This document shows, piece after piece, positions 30,191 to 47,366 of a DNA stretch of 64,000 bases. The position numbers and the translations under genes are program-made. Below the pieces are notes generated by a model. It saw nothing but the letters and a program-made list of their open reading frames with translations, was not told the origin of the DNA and searched no databases. The DNA comes from an uncultured archaeon. Its GTDB lineage: Archaea > Asgardarchaeota > Lokiarchaeia > Sigyniarchaeales > SOKP01. Positions within the stretch are counted from its first letter, which is position 1. Each line of letters begins with the position of its first letter. Location of the stretch: assembly GCA_964486045.1 (NCBI GenBank), contig CAZALK010000002.1, positions 224,001-288,000 of the forward strand, read 5' to 3'.

Positions 30191-31528
30191 GTGACAAAAA
30201 AGAAAGTAATAATAATTGGCGCATTAGGTTACGATTTCCACTTGTTTAATACAGTATTCAGAGATAACGAGGAATATGAAGTAGTAGCCTTTACAATTGC
30301 AGTTGAACAAAATGTCGGGACAATAGAAGGGGCAGAACGAAGATTTCCCACTGAACTTTCAGGAAAAATCTATCCCGAAGGAATACCTATGATTTCAGAA
30401 GAATTACTTGAAGATATAATTAAAGAAAAAGAAATTGATGAAGTAATATTTGCATATTCAGATGTTTCTCATGACGATGTGATGCATAAAGCGTCGAGAG
30501 CTCTTAGGGCAGGTGCAGATTTTCGCTTAGTCTCTGGAAAATTTACACAAATAAAAGCAAATAAACCTGTCGTAGCAATTTGTGCTGTAAGAACAGGTTG
30601 TGGAAAAAGTCAAGTTTCTAGAGCAACTTATAGATATTTAAAAAGTAAAGGTTATAAAGTAGTTGCTATACGAGAACCTATGCCTTATGGGGATTTAATT
30701 AAACAAAATATAATGAGATTTGAAAAATATGAAGACTTAGATAAACATAATTGCACTATTGAGGAACGAGAGGAATATGAGCCATACATTGAGCAAGGTT
30801 TAATTATCTATTCAGGAATTGATTATGAGAAAATCATTAGAGAAGCTGAGAAAGAAGCAGATATTATTATTTTTGATGGTGGAAATAATGAAATTTCTTT
30901 CTATGTACCTGATTTATTGTTTATAGTTGTAGATCCTTTAAGACCGGGTCATGAAATGAAGTATCATCCAGGTGAAGTCAATGCTCGATATGCTGATGCA
31001 TTTGTAATTAATAAAATGAATAGTGCTAAGCCTGAAGATGTAAAGACTGTAGAAAATAATTTAGATGAACTAAATCCTATGGCTACAAAGATATATACAA
31101 ATTCTATAGTTACAATTGAAGGTAATCATGAAATAAAAGGCAAAAAAGTCATCGTTGTGGAGGATGGTCCCACCCTAACACATGGAAACATGTCTTATGG
31201 GGCAGGATATGTTGCTGCCATTAATAGTGGAGCTATAGTAGTGGATCCAAGACCTTATTTATCAGGTACAATGAAGACTGTCTTTGAAGAATTTCCACAA
31301 ATTACTGAAATTATTCCAGCAATGGGGTATAATGATCAACAAATAAAGGATATGGAAGACACACTAAACAAAGTAGATGCTGAAATTATAATAGATGGAA
31401 GCCCAATAGACCTTGAAAAACTTATAAAGAGTAATAAACCAATTGTCAGAGTTAGCTACGATATCGAAGCTTTAAAGAGTCCAACAATAGAAGAAATTTT
31501 AGATCAATTTATCAAAAAGCATCTTTAA
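30191..31528 (+). CDS. arcE: Arginine synthetase (ArcE; usually annotated GTPase/cDPG-synthetase-like)
   Basis: DFH..N.VFRDN, AYSDVSH, AVRTGCGKSQ, PMPYGDL, CTIEEREEYEP, DGGNN, VEDGPTLTHG, PAMGY match the Thermococcus ArcE as I recall it; arcB/arcC nearby. Confidence 0.82.
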   Translation: MTKKKVIIIGALGYDFHLFNTVFRDNEEYEVVAFTIAVEQNVGTIEGAERRFPTELSGKIYPEGIPMISEELLEDIIKEKEIDEVIFAYSDVSHDDVMHKASRALRAGADFRLVSGKFTQIKANKPVVAICAVRTGCGKSQVSRATYRYLKSKGYKVVAIREPMPYGDLIKQNIMRFEKYEDLDKHNCTIEEREEYEPYIEQGLIIYSGIDYEKIIREAEKEADIIIFDGGNNEISFYVPDLLFIVVDPLRPGHEMKYHPGEVNARYADAFVINKMNSAKPEDVKTVENNLDELNPMATKIYTNSIVTIEGNHEIKGKKVIVVEDGPTLTHGNMSYGAGYVAAINSGAIVVDPRPYLSGTMKTVFEEFPQITEIIPAMGYNDQQIKDMEDTLNKVDAEIIIDGSPIDLEKLIKSNKPIVRVSYDIEALKSPTIEEILDQFIKKHL

Positions 31529-31646
31529 AAGCAATATTATTATAATTATCAGAGGTAGAATTCATAAGAAATGTTTTTCTTTTTACTTAAAAAGATTTCA
31601 TGACAAGTTTTTTTTCACATTCAATATACATACATAAATAGAGTGA

Positions 31647-33833
31647 ATGTTCATGATTTTAGCAGAAAGGAGATATGAACTTCAAGATGTCAAAAAAGGC
31701 TATGTGAATCGAACCTTATATATCAATCTTTCAAATAATGAAATTATTATTAAACCTGTTTCGGATGGGATGAAAGAGAAGTTTATAGGTGGAAAAGGTT
31801 TTGATCTGTGGCTTATGTGGAATGCCCTTCCAAAAGATAGAATAGTAAAATGGAATGATCCTATCAACGAAATTTGTATCGCGTCTGGTCCATTAGGAGG
31901 AAGTATATTTTATCCAGGATCAGGTAAAAGTATAGTAACTTCGATTTCTCCACTAACCGGGATAGTTATTGATAGTAATGTGGGGGGCTATTTTGGCCCT
32001 TACATGAAATTTTCGGGTTTTGATGCTATTGAAATACAAGGTAAGGCTGAAGAGGAGGTGTTTATTTACATTGATGGTGTTGAGGGATTAATCCAAATTG
32101 AAGCTGTAGAGGAAAATGAAAATTTTTCTGAATATTCACATGAACTTACTCAACAATTAACTGAAAGATATGCTCAAAATGAAAATGAAAAACAACGAAT
32201 TTCGGTAGTTAGTACTGGTCCTGCTGCAAAACATACGAAATGGGGGATGCTTAATTTTTCATGGTTTGTGCGAGGACGTAACTGGGCTTCATGTAAACAA
32301 GCTGGTAGAGGTGGAATTGGGACAGTGTTTACAGATAAAAATATAAAAGCTTTGGTTTGCCGAACTCCAAAGGTTACCATCAAATCAAATAATCCCGATA
32401 ATCTAGAAGCAGCAAGAGACTTAGGTAAAAAACATAGTCAAGAAGTAATTGAATTGGATCCTACTCAAAATGAAATGAGAAGAGTCGGTACCGGTCATCT
32501 TCCTGATATAATGAATGTTACCGACTTATTACCAACTGAAAATTTCAGATATGGCCGACATAAAGAAATTAGCGGAAAAGATATTCCGTATAATAGGGAA
32601 TTCATGAGAGAGATCTATTCTGGAAAAGAAGGAGCTGATGGATGCTGGTTGGGTTGTACAGTAAGTTGCTCACATTACTCAGATAATTATGAAGTCATGA
32701 CAGGCCCTTTTAAAGATCAAAAAGTAATTGTAGATGGTCCAGAATACGAAACTATAGCGGGATGTGGTTCAAATTGGGGTGTATGGGATGTTAATTGGGT
32801 ATTAGAAGTAAATTTTTATTGTGATACTTACGGTCTTGACACAATAAGTGTGGGAACAGGAATTGCATTCATTATGGAATGTTATGAAGAAGGTATCCTA
32901 AACAAAAAGATTACAGGTGGACTGGATCTTAGTTTTGGAAATGCTGAAGCTGCAATAGAATTAATACACCAAATGGCAAAGGGAGAAGGATTTGGTTTAA
33001 TTGTTGGGCAAGGTGTTAGTGAAATGAAAAAAAAATTTAAAGAAGAATATGGGGCAGATCCAAAATTTTTGCAAGACATCGGAATGGAACATAAAGGGTT
33101 AGAATTTTCTGAATATATGACAAAAGAATCTTTAGCCCAACAAGGAGGTTATGGTTTCACTAACAAAGGAAGCCACCATGATGAGGCGTGGTTAATTTTT
33201 GAGGATGTAATTAGAAACTCTATTCCCACCCTTGAGGACAAAGCAAAAGCTTTGTATTGGTTTCCACTGTGGCGTACATGGTTTAGTCTTAACGGCCTTT
33301 GTAAGCTCCCTTGGAACGATATTCAACCAAAGTCTCAAAAAGACTATCCAATTAAAGACCTTGCTACAGGAGAACTAACGCGAGCAAAAGTCCCTGATCA
33401 TGTTGAATGGTATGCCAAATATTTTTCTGCGGTAACAGGACTCAAGTCGAGTCCAACAGATCTTATAAAAATGTCCGAAGTTGTTTATAACTTTCAAAGA
33501 ATATTTAACATAAGACAAGGTAAAGGGCTTAGAGAGAATGATTCAAACTTGCCGTATAGAGCAATGGGTCCGGTTACTCAACTAGAATATGAAAGTCGTA
33601 CTGAACGGTATGATAACCAGCTGAAAGATTTAGGTTATAATATCGATAAAAAGACTACTGAAGAGAAAATAACCTTACTCCGGAAATATAGAGTAGAGCA
33701 ATATGAAAAACTTCAAGAAGCAGTTTATAAGGAACGTGGTTGGAACCAAAATGGTTGCCCTACAATCGAAAAAGTAAAAGAATTAGGAATTGATTTCGAT
33801 GATGTCATCTCAATTATTAAACCTTATCAATAA
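31647..33833 (+). CDS. aor: Tungsten aldehyde:ferredoxin oxidoreductase family
   Basis: FIGGKG, SPLTG, GRGGIG, C..GC...C, GPEYET, CDTYGLDTIS, GLCKLPW. Confidence 0.9.
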   Translation: MFMILAERRYELQDVKKGYVNRTLYINLSNNEIIIKPVSDGMKEKFIGGKGFDLWLMWNALPKDRIVKWNDPINEICIASGPLGGSIFYPGSGKSIVTSISPLTGIVIDSNVGGYFGPYMKFSGFDAIEIQGKAEEEVFIYIDGVEGLIQIEAVEENENFSEYSHELTQQLTERYAQNENEKQRISVVSTGPAAKHTKWGMLNFSWFVRGRNWASCKQAGRGGIGTVFTDKNIKALVCRTPKVTIKSNNPDNLEAARDLGKKHSQEVIELDPTQNEMRRVGTGHLPDIMNVTDLLPTENFRYGRHKEISGKDIPYNREFMREIYSGKEGADGCWLGCTVSCSHYSDNYEVMTGPFKDQKVIVDGPEYETIAGCGSNWGVWDVNWVLEVNFYCDTYGLDTISVGTGIAFIMECYEEGILNKKITGGLDLSFGNAEAAIELIHQMAKGEGFGLIVGQGVSEMKKKFKEEYGADPKFLQDIGMEHKGLEFSEYMTKESLAQQGGYGFTNKGSHHDEAWLIFEDVIRNSIPTLEDKAKALYWFPLWRTWFSLNGLCKLPWNDIQPKSQKDYPIKDLATGELTRAKVPDHVEWYAKYFSAVTGLKSSPTDLIKMSEVVYNFQRIFNIRQGKGLRENDSNLPYRAMGPVTQLEYESRTERYDNQLKDLGYNIDKKTTEEKITLLRKYRVEQYEKLQEAVYKERGWNQNGCPTIEKVKELGIDFDDVISIIKPYQ

Positions 33834-33868
33834 TTTATTTGTGACTTAATTTTCAAAAAAGATCTCAT

Positions 33869-35953
33869 ATGGAGAATATAACTACCCATCCTATACTAAA
33901 TATACCTGATAGAAAAAAGATCACATTCAATTTTGATGGACATGAATTAACAGGTTATGAAGGAATGGTTATCTCTTCAGCACTTTTTCTTAACAAAATT
34001 AAAGTGTTTGGGCACCATGTTAAGGATTCGAGTCCTCAAGGAATATTTTGTGCTAATGGTCAATGTTCACAATGTAATGTAATTGCTAATGGAATACCAG
34101 TTAAAGCCTGTTTGACTAGTCTAACAAGTGGTATGTCTATCGAAAGTTGTAATGATCTACCGGAATTACCTGCTGAAGATAATCCCGTAAGTATAGAAGA
34201 TGCAGAAATTATGGATGTTGAAGTACTTGTAATAGGGGGTGGACCTGCAGGCCTTTCAGCTGCAAAAATACTAGGGGAGCATAACTTTAATGTTATTTTA
34301 ATTGATGATAAAAACCGACTAGGTGGGAAGTTAATTCTTCAAACCCATAAATTTTTTGGTTCTCAAGAAGAAGTCTATGCCGGGAAACGAGGTATTAATA
34401 TTGCAGAATTACTTGGTAAATCTATTCAAACAATATCAACCATTCAGGTTTGGTTAAATAGTATATGTCTGGCAATTTTTAGCGATGGATTTGTTGGGGT
34501 TTTAAAGAATAAAATTGAATATGTTTTATTAAAACCGAGATATCTTTTAATTGCCACAGGGGCTCGTGAGAAGATGCTAGTTTTTTCAGGTAATACTCTT
34601 CCAGGAGTATATGGAGCTGGCGCATTTCAAACCTTAGTTAATCGTGATCTAGTTAAAGCAGCAAATAGAGTTTTCATAATTGGTGGAGGTAATGTAGGAC
34701 TAATTGCCGGTTATCATGCACTCCAAGCAGGAATTGAAGTTATTGGTTTAGTTGAAGCGATGCCTCAATGCGGGGGATATAAAGTCCATGAGGATAAACT
34801 CAGACGCTTAGGAGTTCCAATTTATATTAGCCACACAATTATATCCGCAAATGGTAAGGATAAAGTAGAATCAATAACAATAGGGCAGATTGATAAAAAT
34901 AAAAATATTATAGCTGGAACTGAAAAAACATATTTATGTGATACAATTTTAATCTCTGTAGGATTAACTCCTGTAAACGAGTTTTATAAGAAGGCTGAAG
35001 AATTTGGCTTAGAAGTTTGGGTTGCAGGGGATGCTAAAGAAATCGCTGAAGCCTCTGCTGCAATATTAACTGGTAGAATTGAAGCGTTAAAAATTTTAAG
35101 AGAAAATGGAATTCCTTTTTCAGATAGTATAAATGATCTCCAAAATTTCGCAAACTTAATGAAAACCAAACCACTTCAACCCCTTAAAAAAGAAATTCAA
35201 TTTAAAGAAGAAGGGATTTTTCCAGTATTTTATTGCACTCAAGAAATACCGTGTAATCCATGTACTTCGGTATGTGACCAAGAGCAAATTAAAACTATGG
35301 ATGATTTAATTGTCAAATTGCCATACTTTAAAGGAGAAAAAGATTGCATTGGGTGTGGAAAATGTCTTGCAGTTTGCCCCGGATTAGCAATAGTGTTACA
35401 TGATTATAGAAAAGATAAAAAAAATCCATTAGTCACCTTTCCACTAGAGCTTTCGGATACCAAACTAGAAACGGATCAAAAAATAATTGTTGTAAGTAAT
35501 AACGAAGAATTAGGAGAATTTGAAATACATAGATCTAGAATACTTAAAGAATTTCCAAAAACTCAATTAATAACCATAAAATTACCTTCAGAGTTAGCAA
35601 AAAAAGCTGTTGCTATAAAACTTGTAAGAATTAGTTATAGTGAACCCATTGAAAGTTATCAGAAATTATTTACTGAGGATGATACAATCGTCTGTAGATG
35701 TGAACGAGTCTCTGTTGGAGAGATACGAAAATGGATTATATCTGGAGTAAAAGATTTTAATGAATTAAAAGCTTTAACAAAAGCTGGAATGGGATCTTGT
35801 GGAGCAAAAACTTGTACTACACTAATTTACCAAATATTTAGAGAGGAAGGAATTCCTATTGAGGATATTACACCAGGAACAAAACGACCATTATTTATTG
35901 AAGTGTTTATGGGGACATTTGCTGGAATTAGAAAGAAAAAAGAAAGTCGATAA
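33869..35953 (+). CDS. Proline dehydrogenase/sarcosine oxidase alpha-like multidomain protein (2Fe-2S, FAD/NAD, 2x4Fe-4S, BFD-like 2Fe-2S)
   Basis: FCANGQCSQC; GGGPAG; ATGARE; CNPCTSVC and CIGCGKCLAVCP; VCRCE...GMGSCGAKTC. Confidence 0.85.
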   Translation: MENITTHPILNIPDRKKITFNFDGHELTGYEGMVISSALFLNKIKVFGHHVKDSSPQGIFCANGQCSQCNVIANGIPVKACLTSLTSGMSIESCNDLPELPAEDNPVSIEDAEIMDVEVLVIGGGPAGLSAAKILGEHNFNVILIDDKNRLGGKLILQTHKFFGSQEEVYAGKRGINIAELLGKSIQTISTIQVWLNSICLAIFSDGFVGVLKNKIEYVLLKPRYLLIATGAREKMLVFSGNTLPGVYGAGAFQTLVNRDLVKAANRVFIIGGGNVGLIAGYHALQAGIEVIGLVEAMPQCGGYKVHEDKLRRLGVPIYISHTIISANGKDKVESITIGQIDKNKNIIAGTEKTYLCDTILISVGLTPVNEFYKKAEEFGLEVWVAGDAKEIAEASAAILTGRIEALKILRENGIPFSDSINDLQNFANLMKTKPLQPLKKEIQFKEEGIFPVFYCTQEIPCNPCTSVCDQEQIKTMDDLIVKLPYFKGEKDCIGCGKCLAVCPGLAIVLHDYRKDKKNPLVTFPLELSDTKLETDQKIIVVSNNEELGEFEIHRSRILKEFPKTQLITIKLPSELAKKAVAIKLVRISYSEPIESYQKLFTEDDTIVCRCERVSVGEIRKWIISGVKDFNELKALTKAGMGSCGAKTCTTLIYQIFREEGIPIEDITPGTKRPLFIEVFMGTFAGIRKKKESR

Positions 35954-35955
35954 AA

Positions 35956-37122
35956 ATGGTTGTATATGATGTTATTATCATAGGTGCTGGAAGTATTGGT
36001 GTTCCAACAGCCTTAGCAACTGCGAAAGATGGATTGAAAACACTTGTCCTCGATTCTTTACCTTCAGTTGCTCAAGCAGATAATAAACATGCAATAGGTG
36101 GTATTAGAGCAACTCATTCAAACATAGGAAAAGCTTTATTATGCAAAAAATCAATTGAAATTTTCTCTAAATGGGAAGAAAAGTATGCAGACGACATTTG
36201 GTGGAATCAAGGAGGGTATACTTTTCTAGCTTTTAATGAAAAAGATGAAAAAATGCTGAAAGACACCGTTAAACTCCAGAAAAGTTTTGGATTGAATATT
36301 GACTTCATAACTATTGAAAAAATTAAAGAATTAATACCAGGAATCAATGATAATGGTTTATTAGGAGCAACTTATAGCCCTGAAGACGGTAATGCTTCTC
36401 CCTTATTATCTTTGCATGCATTTTTTAGACGGTCAAAGAACATTGGTGCTGAATATCGTTTTAATCAGAAAGTTATTGATATTAAAATTAAAAAAAATAC
36501 GATCGTTGGAGTTAAAACAACCAGAGCAAAGTATAAAACAAATATGGTGATAAATGCTGCGGGAGCGCAAGCAAAAAATGTAGGTAGATTAATAGGATTA
36601 AATTTACCTGTTGAGCCAGAATCTCATGAAGCAGGTATTACCGAACCTGTTAAAAAATTTTTCTCACCTATGGTTGTCGACATTAGACCGTGGATAGATA
36701 AAAAATTTGGTAATTCTAAAAATTATTATTTTTATCAAAATAATGAAGGAAAGATTATTTTCTGTTTAACTCCTAATCCAGGCATTTTAGGTAGTGATCG
36801 TAGTGAAACTTCTTCATTTTTACCTCAAATAGCGAAGAGAATGGTTCAACTTTTACCGCGTTTAAAAAATATTAAAATAAGAAGAACATGGCGCGGTTTA
36901 TATCCTATGACTCCCAGTGGAAATCCAATTATAGGCACTGTCAATAAAGTGGAAGGATATATTAATGCTGTCGGTATGTGTGGACAAGGATTTATGTTAG
37001 GACCCGGAACAGGAGAGTTAATAAGCCGTATTATATCAAATAAAACAACTCCCGGAGATACATTAATTTTGAACAATTTATCTACAGAAGATGAATTCTT
37101 TGATGGAGAGATACTAAGATAA
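35956..37122 (+). CDS. FAD-dependent oxidoreductase, DAO/proline dehydrogenase beta-like
   Basis: GAGSIG, INAAG, RTWRGLYPMTP, GMCGQGFMLGPG; 2 bp after the alpha gene. Confidence 0.85.
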   Translation: MVVYDVIIIGAGSIGVPTALATAKDGLKTLVLDSLPSVAQADNKHAIGGIRATHSNIGKALLCKKSIEIFSKWEEKYADDIWWNQGGYTFLAFNEKDEKMLKDTVKLQKSFGLNIDFITIEKIKELIPGINDNGLLGATYSPEDGNASPLLSLHAFFRRSKNIGAEYRFNQKVIDIKIKKNTIVGVKTTRAKYKTNMVINAAGAQAKNVGRLIGLNLPVEPESHEAGITEPVKKFFSPMVVDIRPWIDKKFGNSKNYYFYQNNEGKIIFCLTPNPGILGSDRSETSSFLPQIAKRMVQLLPRLKNIKIRRTWRGLYPMTPSGNPIIGTVNKVEGYINAVGMCGQGFMLGPGTGELISRIISNKTTPGDTLILNNLSTEDEFFDGEILR

Positions 37123-37296
37123 ATTTTAATTCTATAATTGTCTGAACTCAACATCTCAAGATCAGGGATTTATTACGGAAATGTTTGGATACTTTTTTGA
37201 AATTGACTTTTTCTAAGAATAAGATTTTAAGAAAGAAGTGACATTAATTAAATACTTAATTTTAAGATCACATTTATAGTATTTTGGTGGTAGTTA

Positions 37297-38478
37297 ATGA
37301 AGATATTTTTCAGTTATGCAAGTGTTGATACAACGGAATATAGGATAGAAGATATTGTTGATTTTTTAGAATTTCAGGAGGATATTGAATGTGTGTTTTA
37401 TTGGGAGCGTGATACAAAAGGAGGGGAATCCTTTGATGACTATATGAGGAACAACATTAAAAATAGCGACTTAATTATTGTTTTGTTCACTTCCAATACC
37501 GCAACGTCAATTCCAGTTTTCATAGAAATTGGGATGTCAAAAGCTTTTCAAAAACAAGTTATGCCTGTATTTGATAAAGTTGATCATATTGTGGCTGATA
37601 TGCAATCAAGTAGAGGTGTTCAATTTAATTCGAATTTTCGTATGTTTTGTGAAGATTTGTGCTTTAAAATAACGGGAAAAAGAGCCAAATTTAAAGAATC
37701 TAACCCAATGGTAGATTATCGACGCGACTTGTTTGAATCCTTTAGTTTTAATAAATCTTCATACGTAGAACCCGATGTTAGAGATGTTACCGATACCTAC
37801 AAAGAAGAAGAGAAGAACCAAAAGAAGCTTCCATTGATCAGTTATCGAATATTCGAATTTATTCTATTCGACCCTTTAAATCGAGGATCTCTTAACGTTA
37901 TTACTGCTCCTCCTGGTTCGGGCAAGTCTATATTATTAAATTCCATTACGCATGACATATTACATCAAGAGCATTTATCAAGTTACACACCTTTCACAAT
38001 AAATGCAGAAATCTTAAAACTCACCAATGATGAATTATTAGAAGAATTTTATAGATACCTATTTCCTGATACTGAAGGGAGATATTATACAAGTTTTGAA
38101 AACATAGTTAAATCTGGGAGAGGTATCATCCTTTTAGATGGCTTAAGTAAAAACCCTAATGCACATGAGTTACTTACTGACCTTCATAAATTTATCCTTA
38201 CAAACAACGCGAGGATAATTATCACTTGCAGACCGGTCATTCACGATTTTATTCGAAGTTCTCCAAAAATAAAAGAAAAAACCCACTTATATGAGCTCAA
38301 TTCATTCAAGTCATCATCTCTTTTTGAATGGGTTGTTTTAAATAAAAACAATTATGAACAAACTCGGCATCTTCAAGCGAGAGAGATTTACATAGTTTTA
38401 AGAGAACACGTTAAAGAACATGAAGAAAAAGGAGAACGAGTCTCTCTTCCATCTATGATGCAAGAATTTTCTATGTAA
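37297..38478 (+). CDS. TIR domain + NACHT-like P-loop NTPase
   Basis: KIFFSYA...FIEIGMS (TIR with Glu); APPGSGKS, ILLDGL, IIITCRP. Confidence 0.75.
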   Translation: MKIFFSYASVDTTEYRIEDIVDFLEFQEDIECVFYWERDTKGGESFDDYMRNNIKNSDLIIVLFTSNTATSIPVFIEIGMSKAFQKQVMPVFDKVDHIVADMQSSRGVQFNSNFRMFCEDLCFKITGKRAKFKESNPMVDYRRDLFESFSFNKSSYVEPDVRDVTDTYKEEEKNQKKLPLISYRIFEFILFDPLNRGSLNVITAPPGSGKSILLNSITHDILHQEHLSSYTPFTINAEILKLTNDELLEEFYRYLFPDTEGRYYTSFENIVKSGRGIILLDGLSKNPNAHELLTDLHKFILTNNARIIITCRPVIHDFIRSSPKIKEKTHLYELNSFKSSSLFEWVVLNKNNYEQTRHLQAREIYIVLREHVKEHEEKGERVSLPSMMQEFSM

Positions 38479-38606
38479 TTCTAAAACTCTTTTTTATTAC
38501 ATTTGCTTTTCCTTTCTTTTCAAGTATTCTAATTATACTTTTTAGAAAAAAGAAATTTAATTAAAATTGCAAATTTAAGAAATTAATTTAGAATAGGTAA
38601 TTTTTC

Positions 38607-39755
38607 TTAGTTATCAAGACCCAATTTAGTATAGATTGAAATCATATCACCATCCTCAATTATGTGGTTTAAATTAGCGATTTTTTGACCTGGATGTTTT
38701 GCTGAATTCCCCCATATTTGTGAAAACCGAAAATCTTGTACAAATCTTTTATGAATCTTACGACAAAGAGTTTCCATTGTGTCTCCTCTATGAAGAATTA
38801 TAGGCTCATCCAAATCTGCTTCTTTTTTAGGAGGTTTCAGATAAACTCGAATTAAATTCAATTCTTGGAAAATTCGATGGCGAAGAGCATTTATATTTTC
38901 TTTCTTTTTTGCTGAAATCATAACCCAATGATTGTGTCCAATAGATTCAGTGATTTCTTCTGGTAAGAGTGGAATCTTCATCAAATCTACTTTATTAATA
39001 ACAACAAATTCTTTTGTATAAACCCGATTTCCCATTACAAAATCAATTAGTTGATCTGGTGTAGTATTTGGTTCAGAAAAATGCACTCCTGCATTACGTA
39101 AACCTAATTCATTTAATAAAGCTTTAACCTCATTTTGGTCCATTAATTGAGGACCTTTTGAGGCGAAGTGAATACCACCTCGATTTTGTTCTTTAATAGA
39201 AATACGTGATGGTCGACTATTTAAACGTATTCCCGCATTATTAAGTTCATTCCTAATTTTTTTTAAATCTAGAAAATTGATGGTTCCATCTTCTCGAAAG
39301 CAAATAATTATTAGAACCAATTCAGCTGACCGTACAGCGCCTAAGACTTCTTTCCCTTTCCCCTTTCCGGTTGCTGCCCCTAATATGATACCTGGTAGAT
39401 CTATCAGCTGAATTTTAGCATCTTCAATATCCATCATACCGGGGATAGCGGTTATTGTAGTGAAATTATAAGCTGCCACTTTTGAATGAGTATCTCCTTC
39501 AGTCAACAAGTTAAGCAATGATGATTTCCCAACAGAGGGAAATCCAATGAAAGCGACTTGAGCATCTCCCGATTTCTTAATCCCAAAGCCACCACCACCA
39601 CCCTTTTTAGAACTTACAATCTTAATTAAGCTTTCTCGTAGCTTGGCTAATTGTGCTTTAATAAAATTTATACTTTTTTGTGTAGCTTTGTTTACTTTGG
39701 TGGCGGCCAATCGTTCTTCTAATTCTTTTATTCGATCTTCTACTTTTTCACTCAT
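38607..39755 (-). CDS. drg: DRG/Rbg-family GTPase with TGS domain
   Basis: NKAT, GFPSVGKS, YNFTT, DLPG, NKVD, IWGNSAKHPGQ. Confidence 0.9.
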   Translation of the reverse strand: MSEKVEDRIKELEERLAATKVNKATQKSINFIKAQLAKLRESLIKIVSSKKGGGGGFGIKKSGDAQVAFIGFPSVGKSSLLNLLTEGDTHSKVAAYNFTTITAIPGMMDIEDAKIQLIDLPGIILGAATGKGKGKEVLGAVRSAELVLIIICFREDGTINFLDLKKIRNELNNAGIRLNSRPSRISIKEQNRGGIHFASKGPQLMDQNEVKALLNELGLRNAGVHFSEPNTTPDQLIDFVMGNRVYTKEFVVINKVDLMKIPLLPEEITESIGHNHWVMISAKKKENINALRHRIFQELNLIRVYLKPPKKEADLDEPIILHRGDTMETLCRKIHKRFVQDFRFSQIWGNSAKHPGQKIANLNHIIEDGDMISIYTKLGLDN

Positions 39756-39901
39756 TCCAAATAAATAAAACTACATTAACCAAAAAATTTTTCTTAAATT
39801 GTATAACAATACGGTTTTTCAATAAGTACTTTTTTGTCTTATGGTTTATTATTAAAAATAATGTTTAACGATGGAATAAGCACATAAAGTTGAATTCAAA
39901 A

Positions 39902-41191
39902 ATGGTTGATATAAAAGAAATTTTTGAAGAAGTCGATAATTTAGAAACAGATGATGTTATGGATTTAATGAGGGTTCTTATAAACATTAATACAGTCGTC
40001 CCTCCGGGTAGAAATTATCGTGAGTATGTTGATGCGATTTCACCATATTTCAATGACTTAAGTTATTCATTGGAAGAAGTAATAGTACCAGAAGAGTTAA
40101 TTCAAGAGATTCCGCTTGATCTAATAGGTCCACGAGTAAATTTATTGGCAAAAAAAGATTTTGGTCAAGAAAAATGGGTAAATTTTTATGGACACATGGA
40201 TGTTGTGCCGGCACCAAATAGTGGGGTTGGAAAATGGCAATCTCCACCATTTGAAGCTGAAATCTTAGACAACGGAGAAATCTATGGTCGGGGTGTTGCT
40301 GATATGAAAGGATCTATGGTCTGCTTAATACTAGCGCTTCAAATAATAGAAAGATTAAATCTCAATCCTTTGTTTAATGTCCTTGTTATGAATTGTACAG
40401 ATGAAGAGATTGGTGTTTGGCCAGGAGTAAAATATTTAGCAGAAAAAGGTTATATAGAAGGAACAGTTTATTGCATGGAAGGAAGAATCTATCCTATTAT
40501 ACTTTCTGGAGCTGCAGGAAATTTAGATGTCATCGTTGAAACTATCGGAGTAAGTTGTCATTCCGGAATGAATTATTTAGGAGTGAATGCATTGGAAGAA
40601 ATGGTTCCAATTTTAGTAGAACTTATGGAACTCAAGAAGATTGTAGAAAAACGCGAAAGTATAGATGCTTCTGGTCCACCAAATATTAAAACAGGGAAAA
40701 AATGTAATTTAACGCCAATGTTTAATCTGGATATTATTCGATCAGGTGAGAAATCAAATATTGTTCCGGATTTATGCAAATTAGTTATTAACAGAAGAAT
40801 AATCCCTGATGAGAAATATTCAGAAGTAAAACAAGAAATTATTGATGCTATTGAAAGGGGGAAAAAAAAAAGTAAAGCAGTTGATGTGGAAGTAACATTT
40901 AATTATTCATACCCTCCTCTTAAGATAGACACAAATAGCCCGGGGATAAAAAGAATGAAAAAAGTCTTGAATCTAGTGCATGGTATTCCTGAAGAAAAAA
41001 TTATCTCGATGGGAATGGGTGGATCATTAGACATGAGTTTTATCACCCAAATCTTAAACACTCAGGATATTATAATTCATGGTGTAGGAACTAAAGATTC
41101 TAATATACATGGGGTGAATGAAAATATAAAATTGGATGATGTAAAAATTTATATTAAAGAAATATTAGCGTTCTTATTAGTTGAGTTTTAG
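39902..41191 (+). CDS. M20 metallopeptidase/deacylase
   Basis: GHMDVVP, GRGVADMKG, DEE, NIHGVNE; directly upstream of arcB. Confidence 0.85.
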   Translation: MVDIKEIFEEVDNLETDDVMDLMRVLININTVVPPGRNYREYVDAISPYFNDLSYSLEEVIVPEELIQEIPLDLIGPRVNLLAKKDFGQEKWVNFYGHMDVVPAPNSGVGKWQSPPFEAEILDNGEIYGRGVADMKGSMVCLILALQIIERLNLNPLFNVLVMNCTDEEIGVWPGVKYLAEKGYIEGTVYCMEGRIYPIILSGAAGNLDVIVETIGVSCHSGMNYLGVNALEEMVPILVELMELKKIVEKRESIDASGPPNIKTGKKCNLTPMFNLDIIRSGEKSNIVPDLCKLVINRRIIPDEKYSEVKQEIIDAIERGKKKSKAVDVEVTFNYSYPPLKIDTNSPGIKRMKKVLNLVHGIPEEKIISMGMGGSLDMSFITQILNTQDIIIHGVGTKDSNIHGVNENIKLDDVKIYIKEILAFLLVEF

Positions 41192-41279
41192 CACGTTATA
41201 AACTATCAAAAATTAGATCGAAGAGGATTCAAAAAAAGGATTAAAACAAATAAATATTAAAAAAAACATGTGATTAGTT

Positions 41280-42212
41280 ATGGTTCGACATTTATTAAAA
41301 ATTTCAGATTTTTCAAAAGTTGAATGTGAAGAAGTTATAGATAAAGCAATTGAGATCAAGAACAACCCTAAAAAATTTTATAATTTACTAGAAGGAGAAA
41401 CCCTTTTAATGCTATTCGAAAAACCTTCCTTAAGAACTCGAATATCTTTTGAGACTGGGATGCAACAATTGGGTGGTCATGCAATTTTTTACTCAATAAA
41501 GGATTCACCTTTAGGTAAAAAGGAAAACATTTCTGATACAGCAAAGGTTGTTTCTAGATTTGTAAATATAATTGCTGCTCGTGTTTTTAAACGTCAAGAT
41601 ATCTGGGATCTCGCTAAACATGCAGGTATTCCCGTAATCAATATGCTTGATGATTTTGCTCATCCCTGCCAAATTCTTGGTGATTTTCAAACAATAAAAG
41701 AAAAGATGGGGCGACTTGACAATTTTAAATTATCTTATTTCGGAGATGCATATAATAATGTTACTTATGATTTGATGCGAATGTCTGCCTTATTTGGTAT
41801 ACGAATGGATGTTGCTTGCCCTAATGGCTCTGAATATTCTCCTGAGCAAATAGTTTTAGATGAAGTTGAAGAGATTTCTAAAAAAACTAGTGCTGTTGTA
41901 CGAGTTATTCATGATGTGACCCAAGGTGCAAAGGAAGCCGATGTAATCTACACAGATAGCTGGATGAGTTACGGAATACCACAAGAACAAGAAGAAATAC
42001 GGAAAAAAGCTTTTATGCCTTTTCAAGTTACATCATCAGTTATGAAAGCAGCAAAATCAAATGCAATTTTTATGAATTGTTTACCGGCAATGAGGGGATA
42101 TGAACAAACTACTGAAGTAATTGATAGCCCCCAATCTATTGTTTTTGATCAAGCAGAAAATAGATTGCATATTCAGAAAGCTATAATGCTATTTTTACGA
42201 GAAAAATTTTAG
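41280..42212 (+). CDS. arcB: Ornithine carbamoyltransferase (catabolic context)
   Basis: KPSLRTR, HPCQ, YTDSWMSY, NCLP, QAENR. Confidence 0.93.
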   Translation: MVRHLLKISDFSKVECEEVIDKAIEIKNNPKKFYNLLEGETLLMLFEKPSLRTRISFETGMQQLGGHAIFYSIKDSPLGKKENISDTAKVVSRFVNIIAARVFKRQDIWDLAKHAGIPVINMLDDFAHPCQILGDFQTIKEKMGRLDNFKLSYFGDAYNNVTYDLMRMSALFGIRMDVACPNGSEYSPEQIVLDEVEEISKKTSAVVRVIHDVTQGAKEADVIYTDSWMSYGIPQEQEEIRKKAFMPFQVTSSVMKAAKSNAIFMNCLPAMRGYEQTTEVIDSPQSIVFDQAENRLHIQKAIMLFLREKF

Positions 42213-42234
42213 ACTTAAATAAAATTTCTCTAAA

Positions 42235-42268
42235 TTTATGTATGTGTATGTATATGTGTATACATATG
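42235..42268 (+). promoter_or_regulatory. TATGTR tandem repeats with near-palindrome, candidate VapB operator
   Basis: TATGTATGTGTATGTATATGTGTATACATATG abuts the vapB ATG. Confidence 0.45.
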
Positions 42269-42505
42269 ACCTCTAAAAATATTAGTATTACTGAGGAAGT
42301 ATATAAAAAATTAATGAAGATTAAACGAGAGAATGAAAGCTTCTCTGAACTTTTCCTAAGACTGTTAAAAATCCAAAAAACCAACATGAAAAGAACTTTT
42401 GGAGCGTGGAATTTATCAAAAGAAGAGGAATCTGAGATATGGAAGGCTATTTCAAGTCGTTCTGGTCGAAAATGGGAACGATCAGAAATGGGTGAAATCA
42501 AGTGA
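42266..42505 (+). CDS. vapB: VapB-family antitoxin
   Basis: MTSKNISITEEVYKKL..IKRENESFSE; likely start 42266, not 42242. Confidence 0.85.
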   Translation: MTSKNISITEEVYKKLMKIKRENESFSELFLRLLKIQKTNMKRTFGAWNLSKEEESEIWKAISSRSGRKWERSEMGEIK

Positions 42506-42909
42506 TAATTCTTGATACTTCTGCATGTATAGATTATCTAAATGGTAATCCTAATCTTAAAAAAGTTATATTTGAACAAGAGAATCTTGTACACCTTACT
42601 TCAATTACAATATATGAAGTAAATATTGGTTTAGAACGAACAAAAAGGAAGATTTCCGAAACTAGATATAAAGAACTATATAAATTTTGGATGGAATTCA
42701 TTAGTGGTATGGAAATCTTCTCTTTAGGATTAAAGGAAGCTGAAAAAGCAGCAGAAATTCATGATATTCTTGAATCTAAAGGAAAAATGATTGATGATAA
42801 CGATATCTTAATTGCTGGAATTATGCTTTCAAATGGTATAAATAAAATTATAACTAAAAACATTAAGCATTTTGAATTAATCCAAGAATTAGAAATAATT
42901 CAATATTAA
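42502..42909 (+). CDS. vapC: VapC PIN toxin
   Basis: IILDTS, TIYE, DNDILIAG, ITKNIKHF; GTGA overlap. Confidence 0.9.
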   Translation: MIILDTSACIDYLNGNPNLKKVIFEQENLVHLTSITIYEVNIGLERTKRKISETRYKELYKFWMEFISGMEIFSLGLKEAEKAAEIHDILESKGKMIDDNDILIAGIMLSNGINKIITKNIKHFELIQELEIIQY

Positions 42910-43006
42910 AATCAAATAGAAAACTTATGTGAAAAATTTTAAATAATAAGTTAAATACTATAATTTTTCCATTTGTGTTAATTATTTTAGCATTAGAGGT
43001 TTTTCT

Positions 43007-43915
43007 TTGAAAACATTAATTGTAGCATTAGGTGGGAATGCTTTAATAAAATTTGGTGATGAGGGTACAACAGAAGAACAATTTCGAAATTTACGTGTTC
43101 CCATAAGTCAAATCGCAGAATTAGCTAAAGAATATAATATAATTATAACCCATGGTAACGGTCCCCAAGTAGGAAACTTATTGTTACAACAAGAAGCTAC
43201 TAAAGCAGTTTCGAAGAGACCATTACAAATTTTAGTTGCTGAGACTCAAGGCCAAATAGGCTTCATGATTGAGTCTACCTTAGATGAAGCACTTATGAAA
43301 ATTGGTCTTGATAAAGAAAAGCTGTTTCTTACTGTTCTTACTTATGTTGAGGTAAATTCTGAAGACCCTGCATTTTTAAATCCTACTAAACCGATAGGTC
43401 CCGCTTATTCGGTGCCAAAAGCGGGATATGTTAAAACAGTAAAAGGATATCGCCGTGTAGTTCCCTCACCAAAACCCATTAAAATATATCAATGGCGTGA
43501 GATAAAAAGATTAATGGAATTAGGAAGTTGGATTATAATTGCTTGCGGAGGTGGCGGAATTCCTGTAATAAAAGAAAAAAAAAGACTTTATGGTGTCGAA
43601 GCTGTAATAGATAAAGATCTTGCAAGTGCTAAATTAGCTGAACAAATTAATGCTGATATTTTATTAATAGCAACTGATGTAGAAAAAGTTTCTCTTAATT
43701 ATGGAAGGTCAAATCAAGTGGATTTAGATAGTGTTTCTGTTTCTGAAGCAAAAAAATATTTAGAAGAAGATCAATTCCCACCAGGAAGCATGGGACCTAA
43801 AATTCAGGCAGTTATAAACTTTTTAGAATCAGGTGGAGAAAAAGCAATAATAACTTCTATCGATAAAATAATTAAAGCTTTAGATGGAAAAGCGGGGACA
43901 CAGATATATATATAA
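43007..43915 (+). CDS. arcC: Carbamate kinase
   Basis: ALGGNAL, THGNGPQVG, PTKPIGP, RRVVPSP, GGGGIPV, VIDKD, GSMGPK. Confidence 0.95.
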   Translation: MKTLIVALGGNALIKFGDEGTTEEQFRNLRVPISQIAELAKEYNIIITHGNGPQVGNLLLQQEATKAVSKRPLQILVAETQGQIGFMIESTLDEALMKIGLDKEKLFLTVLTYVEVNSEDPAFLNPTKPIGPAYSVPKAGYVKTVKGYRRVVPSPKPIKIYQWREIKRLMELGSWIIIACGGGGIPVIKEKKRLYGVEAVIDKDLASAKLAEQINADILLIATDVEKVSLNYGRSNQVDLDSVSVSEAKKYLEEDQFPPGSMGPKIQAVINFLESGGEKAIITSIDKIIKALDGKAGTQIYI

Positions 43916-43977
43916 GATTATGATTATTTAGGTAAACAATAAATCTCCAATGATAAAACAAAAATTTTGAGCCATAT

Positions 43978-45240
43978 TTAGTCTCGAATTAGGATCTTTT
44001 CTATAATTTCCAGAGCCCAATCAATTTCCTCTCGAGTTATTACTAATGGTGGAGCAAATCTAATCGTAGTCGAATGGGTATCCTTTGCAAGTATCCCATT
44101 ATTTTTTAAGTCTTCAACAATTTGCCTAGCATCTTTAGTAAATTCAACTGCAATAAGCAAACCCTTACCCCTTATGTCTTTAATTGGAATTCTTGTTTTC
44201 TTTTCACCAATTTCTCTTAGTCTCTTGATAAAATATGCTCCCATTTCCTTTGATCGTTCAGCGAGGTTTTCACGTAAGTGAATATCGATGGATTTCATTG
44301 CAACAGCACATGCCAACGGATTTCCCCCAAATGTACTTCCATGAGTGCCGGGTGTAATTACATCAGGTCCGACTATATCTTTAGTTGTTACGCACGCAGA
44401 AACAGGATAAATACCACCTCCAAGTGCTTTGCCTATTAGTAACATATCTGGCTTCACGTCTTCATGATCACAAGCAAAAAATTTCCCAGTTCTACAAAAC
44501 CCAGTCTGAATTTCATCTAAAACCATTAGAATATTATATTTTGTACAAACTTCCCTTACACTTCTTAGATAACCCTCCGGAGGGATGTTAACACCAGCTT
44601 CTCCTTGTATTGGTTCAAATAAAAAACCAGCTACTTTTTCAGGTCCAGTTTCTAGAATAATACTCTCTAATTCTTCTATATCTCCGTAGGAAATTATTTT
44701 AAATCCTGGTGTGTATGGTCCAAAATTTCCGTAATACCTGACTGCCGAGATGTCAGAACTAAAACCGATAATTGTTATCGTTCTTCCATGAAAATTATTT
44801 CTACATACTATAATTATCGCTTCGTCTTTTGGTATCTTTTTCTTAATATACCCCCATGCCCTTATTATTTTCAAACCTGTAGAAACTGCTTCTGTTCCAG
44901 TATTCATTGGAATAGACATTATTCCTGAATCTGATGGATCATTAATATGAGGACCAACAATTTCAGCTAATAATTTCAAGAAAGGCCCCATCATATCATT
45001 ATGAAAAGCCCTTGAGGTTAAAGTAACCTTACTAGCTTGTTCTGTTAAAGCGGCTATGATTTCTGGGTGACAATGGCCAGTGTTTTGACTTGAGTATGCT
45101 GATAAACAGTCAAGATACTTTTTTCCTTCCGGATCATAAACCCAAACTCCTTCTGCTCTAGAGATTACCACGGGAATCGGATGATAATTGTGAGCGCAAT
45201 ACTTTAAATCCATATCAATATAATCTTTTGAGGTTGGCAT
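43978..45240 (-). CDS. rocD: Ornithine delta-aminotransferase
   Basis: AHNYHP, LSAYS, TLTSRAF, PMNTG, EPIQGEAG, DEIQTG, GKALGGG, HGSTFGGNP. Confidence 0.92.
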   Translation of the reverse strand: MPTSKDYIDMDLKYCAHNYHPIPVVISRAEGVWVYDPEGKKYLDCLSAYSSQNTGHCHPEIIAALTEQASKVTLTSRAFHNDMMGPFLKLLAEIVGPHINDPSDSGIMSIPMNTGTEAVSTGLKIIRAWGYIKKKIPKDEAIIIVCRNNFHGRTITIIGFSSDISAVRYYGNFGPYTPGFKIISYGDIEELESIILETGPEKVAGFLFEPIQGEAGVNIPPEGYLRSVREVCTKYNILMVLDEIQTGFCRTGKFFACDHEDVKPDMLLIGKALGGGIYPVSACVTTKDIVGPDVITPGTHGSTFGGNPLACAVAMKSIDIHLRENLAERSKEMGAYFIKRLREIGEKKTRIPIKDIRGKGLLIAVEFTKDARQIVEDLKNNGILAKDTHSTTIRFAPPLVITREEIDWALEIIEKILIRD

Positions 45241-45372: not shown

Positions 45373-45867
45373 TTAAAATTCAATATTATCTCCAAATTCT
45401 TTTATAGGCCATTGCCAATAGAGATCTGTTTTAATAACTCCCTTATCTTTTAATTCTGTAAATAACTTTTCTCTTAAATTATGAAGAAAATTATCGGGAT
45501 CATAGAGAATCTGACCTTCATCTAATGCATCTAAAATTAAATAATATTTTGAATCCGCATAACTTTTCATTTCCTTTGAAGTTCTCCAGAGAGCTTGAAT
45601 ACCTGAACAAACAGACATAGTTAAATTAATACCCCACTTACTCCTCTTAAGAAGATCAACAGTAATTTTATCAGAAATAATAAATAAATCAATATCGCTT
45701 ATATATTCTGAATCATCCCTAGACCTTCCAGTTGCAACAGACCCATAAAGTAAGATTGAGCGTATTTCTAAGTCTAATTTAAAAATATATTGAAGAAACT
45801 CACTTAGTTTGTTTTTAAAATACTCTTCTTTAATAAAAAATAGGTTTATATCCTCAACTTGAGTCAT
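45373..45867 (-). CDS. Minimal nucleotidyltransferase (MNT)
   Basis: LYGSVATG...SDIDL. Confidence 0.82.
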   Translation of the reverse strand: MTQVEDINLFFIKEEYFKNKLSEFLQYIFKLDLEIRSILLYGSVATGRSRDDSEYISDIDLFIISDKITVDLLKRSKWGINLTMSVCSGIQALWRTSKEMKSYADSKYYLILDALDEGQILYDPDNFLHNLREKLFTELKDKGVIKTDLYWQWPIKEFGDNIEF

Positions 45868-46373
45868 TTTTCAATCAAATCATTACATTCTTTTATGAAA
45901 TTTGATAATAATATTATTTCTTGTTTGAGATTTGGTAATTCATTAATTAGTGCCTTAATATTTATCATAATTTTTTCTAAGTCTTTTAAATATTTAATTG
46001 CTTCTAATTTATCGTATTTCTCCTCTGGAGTGATTAATTTACCCTCTTTCATAATTCCATATCTAGTGGAGGGTCCTTCTCCTTCAATCCCTTTTGCTAG
46101 AGCTGCGACGTTTTTTATTTTCTCAAGAATTTCTTTTTCAATATTAATATTTTTATTAGTTTCAATGGATTCTAATATTATTGATGGATTGTGAATTTTG
46201 CGAAATTTAAATCCTAACAATAGGATTAATGCTTTTTGCAGTTGTTCTATTGATAATTGAATTTTAAAGACACACTCAGAATAGTCATTAATTTTATAAT
46301 TCCTAATTACTCTTTCTATATTTTTAAACGCTAAATCTATCCATTCCTTAGTTTTTTCGTAATTAGTGGTCAA
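45864..46373 (-). CDS. HEPN domain protein
   Basis: QLSIEQLQKAL, KIH, TRYG; ATGA overlap with MNT. Confidence 0.8.
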   Translation of the reverse strand: MTTNYEKTKEWIDLAFKNIERVIRNYKINDYSECVFKIQLSIEQLQKALILLLGFKFRKIHNPSIILESIETNKNINIEKEILEKIKNVAALAKGIEGEGPSTRYGIMKEGKLITPEEKYDKLEAIKYLKDLEKIMINIKALINELPNLKQEIILLSNFIKECNDLIEK

Positions 46374-46555: not shown

Positions 46556-47365
46556 TTAAGATATTTTATTTTTATTTTCTCTATTTCCTCGTTTTATAAT
46601 TTCTTTAATAAAATAAGTTGCAACCATATTAGCCTTAGCACCTGAACCAAAACCTGCATCATATCCTAGCTCTTTTGCCAATTCATTACTTATTCTTGCT
46701 CCACCACATATTAAAATTACTTTATCACGTATTTCTTCTGCTTCTAATAGTTCTACTAAATTAGTTAAATTCTTTACATGAATATTTTTTTGGGTAACTG
46801 TTTGAGACACCAGTAATACATCTGCTTTTAATTCTATAGCCTTTTTTACAAATTCTTCATTTGTTATCTGGCTTCCGAGATTATAAGTTTCAATCATTTC
46901 AAATCTTTCAAGCCCATAATGACCCGCGAAGCCTTTCATATTCATAATAGCATCAATACCTACTGTATGAGCATCTGTACCTGTTGATGCCCCAAGAATT
47001 ACAATTTTCCGCTTAAGGTTTTTTTTTATGAGTTCATTTATTACTTCAATTGACAAAGTTTCTACCTCAACAGATTCTGCTTGAATTGTTGTATAATCAA
47101 CTGTATGATCTATACTGCCATACACTACAAAAAATGTAAAATCTTTATCTAAGGAGCTATGATAGGCTACAGTTGGATCTTTTAATCCCATCTTTTTTGC
47201 TAACTCTTTAGCTGCTACAACTGCTTTTTCATCATTTTCAATAGGAAGCGTAAAACTTAATTGAACTTTTCCATCGTTCATCGTATCGCCATAAGGTTTA
47301 ATTTTTGTTAAATCGAGATGTTGATCAAATTCCCTTTTTTCAGTCGAATATAATCCCCCACCCAT
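46556..47365 (-). CDS. kamE: Lysine 5,6-aminomutase beta subunit (B12/PLP)
   Basis: KPYGDTMNDGKVQLSFTLP, DAHTVG (DxHxxG), NMKGFAGHYGLER. Confidence 0.95.
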   Translation of the reverse strand: MGGGLYSTEKREFDQHLDLTKIKPYGDTMNDGKVQLSFTLPIENDEKAVVAAKELAKKMGLKDPTVAYHSSLDKDFTFFVVYGSIDHTVDYTTIQAESVEVETLSIEVINELIKKNLKRKIVILGASTGTDAHTVGIDAIMNMKGFAGHYGLERFEMIETYNLGSQITNEEFVKKAIELKADVLLVSQTVTQKNIHVKNLTNLVELLEAEEIRDKVILICGGARISNELAKELGYDAGFGSGAKANMVATYFIKEIIKRGNRENKNKIS

Positions 47366-47366
47366 A

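Follow-up and report, generated by a model that had tools for sequence, protein, structure and literature searches.

How does an archaeon that encodes ornithine carbamoyltransferase (OTC) and carbamate kinase, but no arginine deiminase (ADI), convert arginine to citrulline? The question is raised by a locus at positions 30191–45240 of a 64,000-nucleotide stretch (the window) of contig CAZALK010000002.1, from an uncultured archaeon of the Lokiarchaeia. The original prediction placed here four genes, arcE, arcB, arcC and rocD, of an arginine synthetase pathway that conserves energy in its first step. All four lie where they were predicted, and the products of the last three, OTC, carbamate kinase and ornithine aminotransferase (OAT), pass the curated equivalog thresholds TIGR00658, TIGR00746 and TIGR01885. 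This is a genuine and conserved gene cluster for arginine catabolism, centred on an ArcE-family enzyme whose subfamily is uncharacterised. We consider it probable that it forms a catabolic arginine module of Loki-type Asgard archaea, in which arginine would be converted to citrulline with formation of ATP. This reading draws on the gene identities, family membership and fold, on the absence of arcA, and on conserved linkage and co-occurrence.

Gene content and proposed pathway

The source genome is 5.18 Mb in size, 99% complete with 7.8% contamination, and has a GC content of 32%, with 31–34% in the window. The region contains the following genes, with the evidence for each in brackets.

30191..31528 (+): ArcE-family protein of the EE subfamily (glutamate at positions 162 and 234), putative arginine synthetase, 445 aa, GTG start (motifs, homologs, fold)
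31647..33833 (+): aldehyde:ferredoxin oxidoreductase (AOR) family protein, 728 aa (Pfam AFOR_N and AFOR_C)
33869..35953 (+): Fe-S/FAD alpha-like subunit of a proline-dehydrogenase-like complex, 694 aa (Pfam Fer2_4, Pyr_redox_2, 4Fe-4S, BFD-like)
35956..37122 (+): DAO-family beta-like subunit of a proline-dehydrogenase-like complex, 388 aa (Pfam DAO, 191 bits)
37297..38478 (+): TIR-NACHT protein, NLR-like and of defence type, a non-pathway insertion (Pfam TIR_2 and NACHT)
38607..39755 (-): DRG/Obg-like GTPase with a TGS domain, a non-pathway insertion (Pfam MMR_HSR1, MMR_HSR1_Xtn, TGS)
39890..41191 (+): M20 ArgE/DapE-family deacylase (TIGR01910, 225 bits; cut-off 218)
41280..42212 (+): OTC, arcB/argF (TIGR00658, 356 bits; cut-off 281)
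42242..42909 (+): VapB-VapC toxin-antitoxin pair between arcB and arcC (Pfam VAPB_antitox and PIN)
43007..43915 (+): carbamate kinase, arcC (TIGR00746, 365 bits; cut-off 358)
43978..45240 (-): OAT, rocD (TIGR01885, 522 bits; cut-off 378)

Besides the four named genes, the region therefore holds the AOR-family gene, the two proline-dehydrogenase-like genes and those for the TIR-NACHT protein, the DRG-like GTPase, the M20 deacylase and VapBC.

In the proposed pathway, the ArcE-family protein would convert arginine, ADP and Pi to citrulline, NH3 and ATP. OTC would then phosphorolyse citrulline to ornithine and carbamoyl phosphate, carbamate kinase would make a second ATP, and OAT would yield glutamate-5-semialdehyde/1-pyrroline-5-carboxylate (P5C). 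Proline may enter this pool through the proline-dehydrogenase-like pair, and oxidation of the semialdehyde to glutamate, with ferredoxin, is probably the task of the AOR-family enzyme. The corresponding arginine synthetase pathway of Thermococcus kodakarensis consists of ArcE (TK2200), ArcB (TK0871) and ArcC (TK2158) (PMC11032458; PMC13260591). Only one curated protein stands behind the reaction RHEA:79573, and TK2200 is the one enzyme of the family to have been characterised. Because no other member has been assayed, all catalytic steps proposed here and their direction are inferences, most of all the activity of the EE-type ArcE of the window.

Membership of the ArcE family

Judged by comparison with its relatives, the 445-aa protein is a member of the ArcE (TK2200) family. 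It carries GALGYDFH at residues 10–17, a Walker A P-loop (TGCGKS, 135–140), REPMPYG (161–167), EEREEYE (191–197) and FDGGNNE (228–234); it is encoded in single copy in the source genome, and has no Pfam match above the cut-off and no NCBIfam match at all. In an exhaustive homolog search, 2971 cluster representatives were retrieved; matches spanning the full length had 31–54% identity and scored up to 507 bits. Diverse representatives of the family score 350–507 bits at 40–54% identity over the full length, and full-length identity is 40% to homologs from Thermoproteota/Desulfurococcales, an order published as arcE-bearing and including Staphylothermus marinus F1. Genome and profile scans locate the family in Desulfurococcales, Ignisphaera, S. 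marinus, Nitrospirota, Chloroflexota, Caldisericia, Brocadia, Bacteroidota and Thermoplasmatota. Membership is supported by the agreement of these carriers with the published list of arcE-bearing groups, which includes Desulfurococcales, Nitrospirota, Chloroflexota, Caldisericia and Brocadia and in which homologs from Lokiarchaeota had already been listed in 2024 (PMC11032458).

The AlphaFold2 (AF2) model of the protein is of high confidence (pLDDT 93.3, pTM 0.91). In a Foldseek search with this model, cyclic 2,3-diphosphoglycerate (cDPG) synthetases 8oru and 8ork ranked first (E 1e-17), and the third match was LpxK 4EHY (E 6e-9), the entry that the ArcE authors superimposed on their model of TK2200p (PMC11032458). 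The predicted P-loop fold thus resembles LpxK in the way reported for ArcE.

The 120 closest relatives (80–100% identical) come from metagenome-assembled genomes labelled Promethearchaeota or Lokiarchaeota, which agrees with the Asgard host that had been suspected; the Promethearchaeota are the Asgard phylum. They are named 'predicted GTPase', 'GTPase' or 'cyclic 2,3-diphosphoglycerate synthase', the last being PGAP naming. The expectation that automated annotation would overlook ArcE is borne out by these names, and metabolic reconstructions of Asgard archaea will miss the arginine synthetase step because pipelines name the genes in this way. In-frame TAG/TGA codons appeared to be present in some homologs. 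The one that could be seen on re-alignment is the gene's own stop, two residues before the C-terminus of the query, and the other seven re-alignments contain no internal stop.

Absence of arginine deiminase

The window lacks an arginine deiminase gene, as had been noted at the outset, and the genome-wide search for arcA that the original prediction proposed found none in the source genome, the best TIGR01078 score being 21.8 bits (cut-off 489). Nor does arcA exceed the cut-off in any of 201 Asgard genomes. In this set an ArcE homolog is present in 167 genomes and arcC in 150; 142 have both, 25 only the ArcE homolog, eight only arcC and 26 neither. An ArcE homolog is therefore carried by 142 of the 150 arcC-bearing genomes, although the genomes are related and the odds ratio of 18 therefore exaggerates their independence. 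Some whole genera in the window's own family are without both. The occurrence of the ArcE homolog complements the lack of arcA where arcC is present, and its gene sometimes adjoins arcB or arcC, both being features of the ArcE family.

The genome also contains argG, argH and carB, so that arginine synthesis does not depend on ArcE. By the logic of the T. kodakarensis study, the presence of argG and argH leads one to expect a catabolic role for ArcE (PMC11032458).

Conservation of the gene cluster

Ten relatives of the window locus were compared, together with scans of genome and metagenome loci. In seven genomes of the window's own order, arcE, the AOR gene, the flavoprotein alpha and beta genes, arcB and arcC lie on one strand, with rocD convergent; rocD is conserved at the end of the cluster. 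The AOR gene directly follows arcE in nine of 10 relatives inspected from that order. A compact arcE-arcB-arcC-rocD operon occurs in one genome (G094) and one metagenome contig (L162), and in another Asgard family (G020, G041) arcE abuts arcC. The four-gene content first proposed therefore stands, but the conserved unit is larger, since it takes in the AOR-family gene and the proline-dehydrogenase-like pair, and four of the intervening genes are lineage-specific insertions. The TIR-NACHT, DRG-like GTPase and M20 genes are confined to the window and occur in none of the clusters of the 10 relatives; the VapBC insertion is shared with G156 and the metagenome locus L157 and is absent from the other relatives.

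Of 80 diverse genome loci outside the Asgard archaea, 15 have a carbamate kinase gene, an OTC gene or both no more than 8 kb from the family member, as a rule immediately downstream of it.

A divergent ArcE subfamily and a variant OTC

Several observations weigh against a simple transfer of the TK2200 activity to this locus. One is distance, arcE being 9.8 kb from arcB in the window. Another is that the window's own-order clade has changed positions that are 94–100% conserved elsewhere. Against 80 diverse members of the family and seven other Asgard sequences, and in the numbering of the window protein (P0001), the differences are as follows.

Position 14: majority R; own-order clade Y or M
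Position 18: majority N; own-order clade L or V
Position 36: majority A; own-order clade I
Positions 38–40: majority Q-I-P; own-order clade x-E-Q
Position 162: majority H; own-order clade E
Position 175: majority Q; own-order clade M
Position 208: majority A; own-order clade S
Position 228: majority W; own-order clade F
Position 234: majority D; own-order clade E
Position 404: majority T; own-order clade S

The window protein has Y14, V-E-Q at 38–40, E162, F228 and E234, and so departs from the consensus of the majority, or HD, branch (R14, Q38-I39-P40, H162, W228, D234), which was drawn up from the sequences compared in this analysis and is not a published criterion. The N-terminal motif had been recognised as variant from the outset, and GALGYDFH does deviate, through the loss of R14; it is not an isolated change, however, but one sign of a whole divergent EE subfamily. 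In the AF2 model, residue 162 is preceded by the strand that comes after the P-loop helix, and residue 234 by the Walker-B-like FDGGNN strand. By analogy with P-loop NTPase architecture, both would flank the phosphoryl-transfer site near the gamma-phosphate, while R14 and residues 38–40 may line the substrate site of the partner subunit, as in cDPG synthetase (PMC10690619).

All 120 close homologs of the window protein are of the EE type. Among 150 sequences, positions 162 and 234 covary perfectly (112 H/D, 37 E/E and one Q/D), and the HD and EE types separate on a single branch (FastTree support 98; IQ-TREE PMSF SH-aLRT 94). The HD type comprises other Asgard families, all 120 Thermoproteota profile matches, Thermoplasmatota, Bathyarchaeia and most bacteria. 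The EE type falls into two groups. One, from Halobacteriota, retains R14; the other has M, Y or F at this position and is made up of WOR-3 bacteria, DPANN-labelled archaea, two EukProt eukaryotes, sequences labelled Helarchaeota or Undinarchaeales, and the window's order. The two EukProt proteins (P0132 and P0413, one of them from Creolimax fragrantissima) are EE-type ArcE homologs for which contamination or gene transfer is possible. A specific sister relation between Loki and eukaryotic sequences, suggested by FastTree, is not upheld by the better IQ-TREE PMSF tree, in which the two group with Diapherotrites-labelled and unclassified-archaeon sequences and not with the Loki clade.

The OTC of the window is also unusual. 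It has the motifs DSWMSYG and FMNCLP (SYG/NCLP) in place of SMG/HCLP; DxxxSMG and HCLP are the ornithine-site motifs of OTC. SYG/NCLP occurs in each of the 12 Loki-type OTC genes observed, those from metagenome contigs among them, whereas SMG and HCLP are present without exception in the 20 other full-scoring OTC genes observed. The latter include OTCs beside HD-type ArcE, those beside the EE-type ArcE of Halobacteriota and the main OTCs from five further Asgard genomes; these five score 425–448 bits with TIGR00658, compared with 356 bits for that of the window. Two enzymes that share citrulline, ArcE and OTC, are thus both altered at otherwise fixed motifs in one lineage.

This raises the possibility that the EE-type ArcE and the co-varying OTC are functionally shifted, towards a related guanidino or ureido compound, another nucleotide or kinetics favouring one direction, and are not plain equivalents of the TK2200 system. 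The one-branch split with its perfect covariation would fit such a shift, as would the restriction of R14 loss to the M/Y/F14 group, the net change towards a more acidic presumed site and the SYG/NCLP motifs of the Loki order. Halolamina, moreover, has both ADI and an arcE homolog (PMC11032458), and the haloarchaeal homologs seen here are of the EE type. The gene neighbours nevertheless point back to arginine, citrulline and ornithine, since by curated cut-offs they are OTC, carbamate kinase, OAT and, in WOR-3, P5C dehydrogenase. The variant OTC retains D226 as well as the cysteine of the xCLP motif. It is also the only OTC in a genome that has argG, argH and carB, so that ornithine and citrulline should remain its substrates. 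The biosynthetic argG, an argD-like gene and argH lie together on another contig (G000:C14:16543-24088) without an OTC of their own, which means that the variant OTC of the catabolic cluster must serve both directions. Elsewhere in the genome is a second copy of carbamate kinase (G000:C6:82870-83760), 66% identical to that of the window.

Further indications come from EE-type genes in other lineages. Of seven EE loci in Halobacteriota, three adjoin OTC; in five EE-bearing Halobacteriota genomes arcA is found in none and carbamate kinase in two. In 15 of 15 genomes of WOR-3 bacteria with an EE-type gene (L236-L250), that gene is immediately preceded, on the same strand, by one of approximately 514 aa. 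At the one WOR-3 locus scanned (L236) the preceding gene encodes a rocA-type L-glutamate gamma-semialdehyde dehydrogenase (TIGR01237, 730 bits; cut-off 660) and overlaps the start of arcE; its counterparts in the remaining 14 genomes belong to the same BLAST cluster. Such coupling to rocA supports a role in arginine catabolism. No OTC or carbamate kinase gene occurs within 9 kb of the WOR-3 EE loci; pheS and pheT are found downstream in eight of the 15. For the HD type, carbamate kinase lies near 22 of 70 metagenome loci. Three independent contexts (the Loki-order cluster, the OTC neighbours in Halobacteriota and rocA in WOR-3) argue, from gene neighbourhood, that the EE type does still serve arginine catabolism. 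A functional shift appears unlikely. Most likely, the pathway itself is the known arginine synthetase pathway, with its key enzyme and its OTC in variant forms.

Other routes to citrulline and other identities

One further point against an ATP-forming step is that the genome contains a different enzyme that could, in principle, make citrulline. The sole relative of the arcA superfamily is a 269-aa amidinotransferase resembling dimethylarginine dimethylaminohydrolase (DDAH), encoded away from the cluster (G000:C5:214987-215412; L001:1147-1956). If it hydrolysed arginine to citrulline, the ArcE homolog would have some other role. The protein matches the dimethylargininase model NF045658 at 306 bits, short of the cut-off of 450, and ADI models weakly; DDAH enzymes act on methylated arginines. 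Its gene is unlinked to the arc cluster, and it is the ArcE homolog, not the DDAH-like gene, that travels with arcB, arcC and rocD, which makes this explanation very improbable.

That the 445-aa protein is a cDPG synthetase, as NCBI names many of its close homologs, is scarcely credible: the two share a superfamily, a two-domain fold, the top Foldseek rank and 55–69 bits with a 76-sequence family profile, but the best match of the single sequence to a solved structure, a cDPG synthetase, is only 23 bits, against 350–507 bits to members of its own family, and structural alignment gives 16% identity, while the genes around it are those of arginine catabolism, the family occurs in bacteria and many non-methanogens, and cDPG has been reported only from hyperthermophilic methanogens (PMC10690619), in contrast to an Asgard genome of 32% GC. 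The preference for ArcE over cDPG synthetase in the original prediction is thus upheld. Together the single-sequence and profile scores show the relation to be real but remote, and a low similarity to cDPG synthetases has also been reported for ArcE (PMC11032458). With the enzyme of Methanothermus fervidus (8ORK/8ORU; PMC10690619) the window protein has in common this remote homology, the two-domain architecture and a Walker A P-loop; the P-loop reads RTGCGKS in the window protein and GTGKRVGKT in the synthetase, and taxonomy and gene neighbourhood also differ. A route through agmatine and N-carbamoylputrescine is ruled out by the neighbouring genes, which curated models identify as OTC, OAT and P5C dehydrogenase.

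A proposed route from ornithine and proline to glutamate

No conventional or recognisable P5C dehydrogenase was found in the genome, whose sole aldehyde-dehydrogenase-family gene encodes a methylmalonate-semialdehyde dehydrogenase. The 728-aa AOR-family protein is therefore a candidate for the enzyme oxidising glutamate-5-semialdehyde, and its position is consistent with this, since the AOR gene adjoins arcE where WOR-3 has rocA. It has both domains of the tungsten-containing aldehyde and formaldehyde:ferredoxin oxidoreductases (AOR/FOR) of Pyrococcus furiosus (1AOR, 1B25), and its best match in the PDB is 1AOR (178 bits). About twelve AOR-family members are encoded in the genome, and the window protein is only approximately 25–29% identical to the others found.

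The best PDB matches of the alpha-like and beta-like flavoproteins, both conserved in the cluster, are chain A and chain B (186 bits), respectively, of 1Y56, the L-proline dehydrogenase of Pyrococcus horikoshii. The alpha-like subunit differs in being longer (694 aa), with additional 2Fe-2S, 4Fe-4S and BFD-like domains.

A more far-reaching interpretation would be that the EE branch (Loki-order Asgard archaea, Halobacteriota, DPANN-labelled archaea, WOR-3 and a few eukaryotes) is biochemically distinct and has co-evolved with the SYG/NCLP OTC in Loki-type archaea. Together with an AOR in place of P5C dehydrogenase, this could constitute a ferredoxin-linked route from arginine and proline to glutamate, set apart from the Thermococcus pathway by its kinetics, specificity or coupling. 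This is conceivable, although on balance doubtful.

Comparison with known pathways and significance

The Asgard system shares with that of T. kodakarensis the protein family, the P-loop two-domain fold with its resemblance to LpxK 4EHY, the absence of arcA, the presence of OTC and carbamate kinase, and homologs annotated as GTPases. It differs in gene arrangement, forming a cluster where TK2200, TK0871 and TK2158 lie scattered, and in the addition of rocD, the AOR-family gene and the proline-dehydrogenase-like pair. Compared with the consensus of the family, it is also set apart by membership of the EE subfamily with loss of R14 and by the SYG/NCLP OTC. In addition, the Asgard organism has a carbamoyl-phosphate synthase, so that, unlike in T. 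kodakarensis, the pathway is not needed as a source of carbamoyl phosphate. With the ADI pathway (arcABC) the Asgard system has in common the downstream OTC and carbamate kinase and the overall conversion of arginine to ornithine with a gain of ATP. The ADI pathway, however, has ArcA, with a hydrolytic first step and one ATP per arginine; in the Asgard system there is no ArcA, and the proposed ATP-forming first step would give two.

Among known prokaryotes, the Asgard archaea stand closest to the eukaryotes, and those in culture grow slowly by syntrophic fermentation of amino acids. For such organisms one extra ATP per arginine would be a large gain. If the proposal is correct, arginine synthetase and not ADI would be the standard entry to arginine catabolism across the Asgard phylum, given the distribution of ArcE homologs (167/201) and arcA (0/201). 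The HD/EE split also implies that the characterisation of TK2200 may leave much of the family uncovered, including its Asgard, haloarchaeal, WOR-3 and eukaryotic members. Neither the Asgard cluster nor the HD/EE split nor the OTC variant is described in any paper that a full-text literature search retrieved.

Adjacent genes

Beyond rocD, the beta and alpha subunits of lysine 5,6-aminomutase are encoded at 46556–48947 (NF052385 and NF052384, both above cut-off). These genes occupy the same position in a relative (G192), so that lysine fermentation genes adjoin the arginine cluster; a homoarginine/lysine route, which this proximity brought to mind, is without support. Between rocD and the aminomutase genes, at 45373–46373, are overlapping genes on the minus strand with Polbeta nucleotidyltransferase and HEPN domains, which resemble a HEPN/MNT toxin-antitoxin pair.

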